NCBI GenBank assembly: GCA_951406725.2
Contig: OX597817.1
Location: 166,098,001-166,162,000 of the forward strand
Length of the DNA: 64,000 nt
From: Octopus vulgaris
Taxonomy: Eukaryota
Direction of reading: 5' to 3'
The notes under the pieces were generated by a model. That model saw nothing but the letters and a program-made list of their open reading frames with translations. It had not been told where the DNA came from and made no database searches. The translations under genes were made by a program, and so were the position numbers. Shown in pieces: positions 14,836-15,567 of this stretch. Every line of letters begins with the position of its first letter. Position 1 is the first letter of the stretch.

Positions 14836-15068
14836 TAACGGGAAGCTTTATGAAAATAGACAAAAGACGAAGGCAGGTTTACGGAAATAAACAAAAGACG
14901 AAGGCAGGTGGAATACAAACAAACAATTGTATTAGTATGGCGCTCAGGAAATATAAATAAAACAAGTCTTTAACGTTTCGAGCCTACGCTCTTCAACAGA
15001 AAGATACAAAGAGAGAAGAAACACAGAAAGAAGGAGAGAAAAAAAATGCGTGCAGAGGCTAGCGAATC
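14836..15068 (-). mobile_element. Repeat family B with variant hammerhead motif at 14968-15003
   Basis: Minus strand CTTT-CTGTTGA-A-GAGC-GTAG-GCTC-GAAA-C-GTT-AAAG. Related pieces at 54757-54873 and 62455-62545. Confidence 0.65.
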
Positions 15069-15070
15069 AA

Positions 15071-15248
15071 CGCCGAGAGCGCACCGGACGCCGCCCGAGA
15101 CGCGGCGCTCTACAGGTACCATATCCGTATCTCCGGACGAGCCGATTCCACGGACGCGGTCCTTTACGAAGAAGAGAGAACTCTTCCCGGGGCTCACGGC
15201 AACGTCTCCGGGCTCGCTTGCGTTGCCGCTGTTTCGCCCGGCCGCCGG
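15071..15248 (-). rRNA. 28S (LSU) rRNA fragment, ~180 nt pseudogenic copy
   Basis: GC-rich island. Minus strand AGCGGCAACGCAAGCGAGCCCGGAGACG..GAGCCCCGGGAAGAGTTCTCTCTTCTT..GGAATCGGCTCG..GGCGGCGTCCGGTGCGCTCTCG matches the conserved metazoan 28S segment (GAGCCCCGGGGAGAGTTCTCTTTTCTT...GGCGGCGTCCGGTGAGCTCTCG) as recalled. Confidence 0.85.
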
Positions 15249-15249
15249 C

Positions 15250-15567
15250 TTCTTCTACTATAATCCATCAATCTCTGCTTTGAACCCACGCTTCTAACCA
15301 AATCAGAGGATTTTTTTTCTTTATCGATTTCCATTCTGTTCTCCAAGTATTGGCTATGCAAAGGCTTTCTTGGTATCGACTTATCAGAGCGTTCCGTAGC
15401 CACAATTTTAGCATACAACATTAGCTTCTTCAAGATTTCTCTTGATTTTCCATTTGCTTCATAGCGTTCTGTTATTACAGGTTTTCTTTTGTAGTTTTTG
15501 GCTACTTTGAAATTAGAAAATAGTTTCACTTGTTTTGTTCGTATTCGTTTTTAGCCCACACTAGGAT
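15250..15567 (-). pseudogene. Degenerate R4/Dong-like LINE fragment between the RT and the CCHC/RLE region
   Basis: KPLHSQY..IDKEKKS and, after a frameshift, KAEIDGL resemble the KPLHGQY..IDKEKS..WL..GLKxETEG motifs of R4/Dong ORFs. Confidence 0.55.

Follow-up and report, generated by a model that had tools for sequence, protein, structure and literature searches.

Chimeras of 28S rRNA with LINE-1 have been described in primates (n=18, 83% in sense orientation, with 28S parts of 50-482 nt), and either template switching or RNA ligation was proposed for their formation (bioRxiv 10.1101/2025.02.02.635956, accessible text). Among Penelope-like elements (PLEs), the EN+ Penelope elements of Adineta vaga were reported to have moved host sequence together with their pseudo-LTRs (pLTRs) within one target-site duplication (TSD), and an empty allele was recovered; the 5′ joins of these captures showed microhomology, an insertion into a non-LTR element was observed, and template jumps were proposed (PMC3846280, accessible text). 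The main text of that paper nowhere contains the term "rRNA". For a purified PLE from Anolis, AT-rich DNA is a substrate for cleavage, both strands are extended, synthesis begins within the element's RNA, and hammerhead cleavage is dispensable; this one purified enzyme was followed only to priming, with the later steps stated to be unvalidated, and the accessible part of the article (PMC11167929) yielded no account of a purified PLE reverse transcriptase (RT) jumping between templates. Fusion to rRNA is not described for Neptune/Nematis-type PLEs in the available portions of PMC8557442, PMC4209133 and PMC11167929, PLE-rRNA chimeras are not mentioned in the available text of the retrozyme preprint, and the Octopus repeat annotation (PMC13282606) has 0 occurrences of "rRNA", "chimer" and "hammerhead" in its main text. 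Literature searches, with subscription journals and bioRxiv supplements outside their scope, yielded no paper on PLE-rRNA or PLE-snRNA chimeras. The pick-up of rRNA is known for mammalian LINE-1; for Penelope elements it was not found in print.

The locus analysed here lies in a window of 64,000 nt from Octopus vulgaris (contig OX597817.1, positions 166,098,001 to 166,162,000 of the forward strand), to which all positions below refer unless another sequence is named. On the minus strand an AT-rich coding-like fragment is followed by a GC-rich island and a pyrimidine-rich module. An earlier account made from the letters alone (the sequence-only reading) placed all three pieces on this strand without a spacer, and this order was confirmed in the window sequence.

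Target site, junctions and alleles

The coding-like fragment (15544-15260, minus strand) was identified by nhmmer as an old, broken piece of an RLE-type LINE, from the region between the RT and the zinc knuckle. It matched a profile of 11 genome copies (LINE with RT, CCHC and RLE) with an E value of 1.7e-12, is about 64-67% identical to the family (67% to the nearest copy, L062) and is broken by stops and frameshifts; the sequence-only reading had called it degenerate. Family copies L521 and L522 contain ORFs of 747-750 aa in which RT, CCHC knuckle and RLE nuclease were recognised by eye; we take the family to belong to the R4/Dong clade. A continuation of the LINE beyond the insert is collinear, but 143 of 200 shuffles scored as high and nhmmer gave no match there. 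Another copy of this LINE family (L265, G000:C7:96631986) contains 173 nt of 18S.

The 28S and PLE parts together are enclosed by an exact 12-bp direct repeat, TATAGTAGAAGA, the upstream copy of which lies at 15262-15251 and the downstream copy at 14835-14824 (both minus strand); no other repeat of at least 7 nt is shared by the two junction zones. A repeat finder run over the whole window was swamped by microsatellites. The two copies are the last 12 nt of what the sequence-only reading had assigned to the LINE and the 12 nt after its module, and the duplication was missed there. A separate TSD for the rRNA piece was sought and none was found, the sole duplication being the one around 28S plus PLE. 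Junction microhomologies, the mapping of which had been proposed earlier, amount to 2 nt between 28S and TSD (the last 2 nt of the upstream copy also match 28S) and 1 nt between 28S and PLE (a G at 15071, minus strand, common to both partners and reached by the contigs of both parents). The first TATA of the downstream copy also matches the PLE's own (AT) continuation. Between these limits 28S and PLE are fused directly and in the same orientation, the inner junction being taken from the assembly alone.

An empty allele was found in one public run (X3), where a contig of 1563 nt (record 17) joins 15606-15253 to 14825-14500 with one copy of the 12-mer. Run X1 is probably empty as well, judging by a 277-nt contig (depth 61.2) with variants on both sides. 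The filled allele was found in X2, in which one contig carries 38 nt of 28S past the TSD and another carries 26 nt of PLE past the TSD at the 3′ junction, the latter below the 31-nt rule. The X2 flanks differ from the assembly at several sites, and its filled allele is therefore another haplotype. Since one public run holds the empty allele and another both outer junctions, the insertion is polymorphic.

Read support for the junctions, on which the sequence-only reading had made itself dependent, was thus obtained for both outer ones in X2; the inner one was not bridged by the contigs listed for X2, X4, X6 and X7, where a hole among filtered contigs proves nothing, and the raw-read run X21 (3% read) gave one read at the locus. 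Were this unbridged junction an assembly error, it would be hard to see why 28S at one of the outer junctions and PLE at the opposite one recur in an independent run, and why the 28S piece carries two private substitutions; such an error is barely credible.

The two enclosed parts are equally young, about 1% diverged each: 28S differs at 2 of 182 positions and the PLE part by 1 substitution and a 2-nt indel from its nearest copies, against about 35% for the LINE. Because there is one TSD, an empty allele and equal youth, it is near certain that 28S and the PLE end arrived as one insertion. Two separate insertions, the second exactly at the edge of the first, might be entertained in a window in which PLE copies are dense; with no inner duplication, equal divergence, empty and full alleles only, and a family that targets (TA)n, they are highly improbable.

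The sequence-only reading had proposed a three-part chimera, with reverse transcription passing from the ribozyme element to rRNA and, by a second jump, to a LINE RNA. The common strand speaks for it, as does the end of detectable LINE homology at 15260, beyond which the continuation is no more than suggestive. Against it, the LINE lies outside the TSD, occurs without the insert in run X3 and is far older. Being outside the TSD and present in the empty allele, the LINE is the insertion site and not a template; the empty allele refutes the three-part proposal, which is almost certainly wrong, and the locus is a two-part chimera inside its target.

Among the best 40 of 67 candidates and at 9 pattern places, the junction of the fused unit was covered once, at this locus. 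An rRNA-derived SINE (SINE28-like) was rejected as its identity, as the fused unit was not multi-copy among these candidates and places.

The Penelope-like donor and its hammerhead motif

The pyrimidine-rich module (15070-14836, minus strand) is the 5′-truncated 3′ end, that is, the pLTR, of a young autonomous PLE. It was found to be 98-99% identical to the 39 other copies listed, out of 1650 candidates. The full unit measures 4285 nt and encodes RT as well as GIY-YIG at the C terminus; longer copies run on into this ORF, and the module is therefore the end of an autonomous element. Of the 29 copies examined, some extend upstream in family sequence and the others break off at differing positions; almost all finish with ...CCCGTT, after which an AT-rich microsatellite begins. 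The ORFs of L066 and L067 contain RT and then a C-terminal GIY-YIG with CxxC between GIY and YIG; Pfam returned RVT_1 (E 4e-5) and GIY-YIG (E 0.0017) on the PLE ORF, both below the curated cut-offs. In L067 two module copies lie 4285 nt apart around the ORF, which corresponds to a partial tandem with pLTRs. A C-x4-C-x2-C motif precedes GIY-YIG in L042, L048 and L067 and fits the CX2-5CxxC linker that is a mark of Neptune/Nematis-type PLEs (PMC8557442, accessible text). On sequence grounds, the donor family bears marks of this type.

A retrozyme or stand-alone hammerhead element, made of ORF-less tandem monomers, was considered for the module and rejected because longer copies reach the RT/GIY-YIG ORF. 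What had been called a hammerhead module does contain a hammerhead-like motif, but as part of an autonomous PLE whose end it represents in truncated form, not as an element of its own. Since this PLE is an ordinary RT-encoding one, the case adds little to the RNA-mediated spread of such modules, for which it had been cited as support.

A minimal type-I hammerhead-like motif was located at 15004-14967 (minus strand) on the basis of sequence, fold and a census of cores, with a predicted cleavage site. It consists of stem I UCUUU/AAAGA, the core CUGUUGA (A6U), an extra A, stem II GAGC/GCUC, GAAA and a palindromic ACGU. By comparison with the features of the minimal type-I layout given in PMC4209133 (accessible text), its geometry appears to fit the minimal pLTR type; the core departs from it by A6U, the non-canonical CUGUUGA being present in 29 of 30 copies. 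Rfam, run over the window, detected neither this motif nor the short 28S piece. The CUGUUGA core is family-wide in what is a young, active PLE family, and the core CUGACGA belongs to a related family, also present in the window (8285, 13071, 13327 and 38999). Cleavage is predicted to separate 14972 from 14971; the 28S junction is about 100 nt away from this cut, which was by its position ruled out as the origin of that junction; the hammerhead rides along in the insert.

Insertion behaviour was examined in 67 PLE copies chosen for a non-microsatellite 3′ flank (from 70 of 115 matches, after removal of three duplicate loci). Of these, 20 begin at a distance of 225-246 nt from their 3′ end, beside a predicted hairpin, and the 28S junction of the copy studied here, at 232-233 nt from the PLE 3′ end, lies inside this hot spot. 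A duplication of 8-16 nt at the junction was found in 10 of the 67, and 8 of these 10 begin with ATA right at the element end. The family normally enters (TA)n repeats. Inside the element the pLTR runs on with ATATAT, so that the target TATA could pair with the PLE RNA. L142, L404, L409 and L415 show switches, at the hot spot, to UTR or ORF sequence of the element itself, and repeated re-priming there. In L363, L391 and L413 a PLE 3′ end meets head-to-head the 3′ piece of a SINE in antisense, with (TA)n tracts on either side; either the target suffered a deletion, or both strands of a single break were used to prime two RNAs.

Source of the 28S rRNA piece

The GC-rich island (15252-15071, minus strand) had been read as sense 28S, and alignment bore this out: it corresponds to nt 2217-2398 of 4889 and is identical at 180 of 182 bases, with 2 mismatches, to the tandem rDNA array of the same genome (G000:C20; array period about 18.4 kb), which was recognised by Rfam as LSU_rRNA_eukarya. 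By the Rfam bounds the rRNA genes of this genome are very long (18S about 2640 nt, 28S 4889 nt); they are GC-rich, and internal repeats occur within ITS1 and the IGS. The 3′ marker of the protostome hidden break, as given in the accessible text of PMC6925239, begins at 28S nt 2118. The piece starts 99 nt later, within the beta half, and neither of its ends is therefore a natural RNA end; the hidden break was ruled out as the source of the 5′ end by the same 99 nt. The proximity to the break stressed in the sequence-only reading is thus correct as a distance (99 nt 3′ of the marker), with no visible role for the break.

The 415-nt 28S+PLE unit is, in our judgement, somewhat more probably than not the product of one retrotransposition event in which the PLE RT jumped from its own RNA onto 28S rRNA. 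The GIY-YIG nuclease of the PLE would have nicked the target TATA, a short mimic of the (TA)n sites of the family, and the RT would have primed at the pLTR end with the help of AT pairing over at most 4 nt. Copying would then have run across the hammerhead for about 235 nt and halted by the predicted hairpin, in the zone where 20 of the 67 copies end. A switch to 28S RNA at nt 2398, over 1 shared base, would have been followed by the copying of 182 nt, and the cDNA may finally have joined the other target strand via 2 shared bases, giving rise to the 12-bp duplication. A jump onto rRNA after priming on the ribozyme element had been suggested from the letters and fits the one TSD, the same orientation and the 1-nt microhomology. 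We infer that RNA rather than rDNA was the template; the piece bears no RNA-only mark, a sense orientation would arise by chance half the time, dispersed pieces of ITS1 occur as well, and a control search with the IGS was saturated by sub-repeats. The product is a one-off, still polymorphic fossil, a rare accident without sign of function.

The same single insertion might have taken its 28S from a DNA template, in which case a unit of the rDNA or one of the dispersed copies would have been copied as a patch while the 5′ end of the PLE cDNA was joined to the target. We regard this as unlikely, with several features in its favour: the microhomologies of 1-2 nt at both 28S ends, the absence of a natural RNA end at either, and the dispersal of ITS1 pieces as well. 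PLEs have also been reported to move intron-containing genomic DNA (PMC3846280, accessible text). On the other side, both young captures (the window locus and L302, below) are of mature-rRNA sequence. rDNA makes up a tiny share of the genomic DNA, and rRNA most of the RNA of a cell. Moreover, 5 of the 39 other 28S matches listed (L027, L269, L270, L271 and L273), which are old and have fuzzy ends, begin at nt 2106-2131, around the hidden-break marker, and this suggests that dispersed 28S pieces are often RNA-derived here.

Another route would be an RNA ligation of the RtcB type, put forward for U6/LINE-1: a 28S fragment would have been joined to a PLE RNA fragment and the fused RNA reverse transcribed. 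The same orientation, the direct fusion and the one TSD would be accounted for by such a ligation, which is one of the two mechanisms named for LINE-1 chimeras (bioRxiv 10.1101/2025.02.02.635956, accessible text), and the ends of three 18S pieces cluster within 4 nt (992-995), which would suit a favoured site of RNA breakage. However, the predicted cut of the hammerhead, from which a 5′-OH end would most readily come, is about 100 nt downstream of the junction, and the junction itself falls within the ordinary truncation zone of the family; ligation is in our view distinctly unlikely.

A PLE might also have sat inside a 28S gene at nt 2398 and been co-transcribed, so that a daughter carried upstream 28S with it (5′ transduction, as in R2). 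Read-through junctions of 28S and R2 are frequent in this genome, and rDNA arrays are under-assembled. Even so, no second 28S(2398)-PLE junction occurred among the best 40 of 67 candidates or at the 9 junction-pattern places, no bridging contig was found in the four runs, and the 28S site is GC-rich, unlike the (TA)n targets of the family. Such a transduction is very unlikely, and the jump of the PLE RT onto 28S rRNA is retained as the preferred reading.

Other captures and comparison with known systems

The frequency of rRNA capture was assessed in 120 rDNA loci obtained with five regions of mature rRNA and ITS1, each search being represented by its best 40 candidates. The sample comprised 86 unique dispersed fragments, none longer than 1000 nt and each with its two ends within the locus, some of which are parts of larger rDNA blocks, and 34 more loci. 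A hammerhead module was met within 7 nt by 3 of the 120, namely the window locus, L302 and L299. L302 is a second clear case of rRNA capture: 96 nt of 18S (nt 899-994, 1 mismatch), at 1089-1184 of the locus (G000:C17:14241588-14241683), lie in another hammerhead element, young and short, between its inverted arms, which are 97% alike, with (TA)n outside. One junction shows a 3-nt microhomology and the other 7 extra bases; relative to one arm the 18S is in sense orientation, relative to the second in antisense. Head-to-head inverted arms with a fixed 5′ end were found in 26 or so of the 35 copies of this family. No rRNA was seen by eye between the arms of the 34 other copies, and a pattern search for GC-rich sequence 5′ of the family returned only L302 and one unrelated place. 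L299, in which 18S adjoins a hammerhead module, was discounted as a capture because its parts differ in age (99% identity for the 18S versus 86% for the nearest copy of the module); it has no TSD.

Further copies of the donor PLE family fused to rRNA or U6, for which the sequence-only reading had proposed a search, did not appear: the count was 0 in about 140 copies examined (29 loci, the 67 copies above and 49 GC-rich-junction loci, including two repeats, from 50 of 98 matches). Likewise, none of the 30 best U6 loci (L108-L137) is fused to this family. A multi-copy repeat lies within 60 nt downstream of U6 in 18 of these 30 and upstream in 4; the repeats that follow U6 look SINE-like by eye, and in L115 and L121 14-bp TSDs surround U6 and repeat together. 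U6-SINE chimeras seem to be the commonest form of U6 in the genome. From these U6 loci and the counts of 3 in 120 and 0 in about 140 it follows that chimeric retrocopies are common in the genome and that PLE-rRNA ones are rare but not unique.

Several other rRNA pieces were recorded in the course of the searches. Four independent 18S breakpoints (L267, L299, L302 and L456) fall at nt 992-997, perhaps a preferred site of RNA cleavage or jumping. TSDs of 10-11 bp were found at L269, L271 and L273, and rRNA pieces are followed by SINE-like sequence in L271, L275, L276 and L304. Two pieces identical (100%) to rDNA stand by themselves amid microsatellites; (TA)n follows on their 3′ side, and no retroelement accompanies them. 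They are 28S nt 3364-3500 in L290 (G000:C26:38284106-38284242) and 74 nt of ITS1 in L490 (G000:C6:6888655-6888728). Copies of 28S inside and outside the C20 array often end or begin at nt 3355-3369 (L002, L003, L011-L016 and L022; L178-L199), which we take to be the R2 insertion site; these breaks adjoin what look like several R2 families.

The locus provides a clean record of the 5′-end step of PLE insertion, being young and polymorphic, with an empty allele, an exact TSD and junctions defined to the base. It suggests that the RT of a PLE, like that of a LINE, can switch onto host RNA, and it offers a direct in vitro test of such switching as well as a presence/absence marker. A wider proposal, speculative and on present evidence rather doubtful, is that PLE RTs routinely jump onto abundant cellular RNAs, and that PLEs are an unrecognised source of chimeric and element-free retrocopies in animals; the window locus and L302 would then be tagged cases, and L290, L490 and perhaps (TA)n-anchored SINEs and U6-SINE fusions would be products.

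Comparison with described systems was made from the accessible text of the papers cited. The tripartite chimeric retrogenes of Magnaporthe (PMC2104539) follow the double-jump model to which the sequence-only reading corresponds; there the TSD encloses all three parts, whereas at the present locus it encloses two. Like Neptune/Nematis-type EN+ PLEs, the donor family combines RT with a C-terminal GIY-YIG, a CX2-5CxxC linker and tandem pLTRs, and it shares with them microsatellite/AT targets (PMC8557442, PMC4209133, PMC11167929); its hammerhead-like motif resembles their minimal type-I form in geometry, with an extra base and a palindromic helix III. Unlike them, it has the core CUGUUGA family-wide. 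The Adineta vaga case (PMC3846280) is similar in that foreign sequence with a pLTR lies in one TSD, with an empty allele, microhomology and a non-LTR target; it differs in that genomic DNA is found between pLTRs or as a spacer, whereas the window insert has one pLTR, with rRNA at the 5′ end. As in 28S/LINE-1 and U6/LINE-1 chimeras, 28S is fused 5′ to the truncated 3′ end of a retroelement within one TSD. In contrast to L1 chimeras, the 3′ partner at this locus is a PLE with GIY-YIG, whose pLTR ends in (AT), with (AT) priming and no LINE-1-type poly(A), and another region of 28S is involved. The locus works like an L1 chimera and is not an L1 product.
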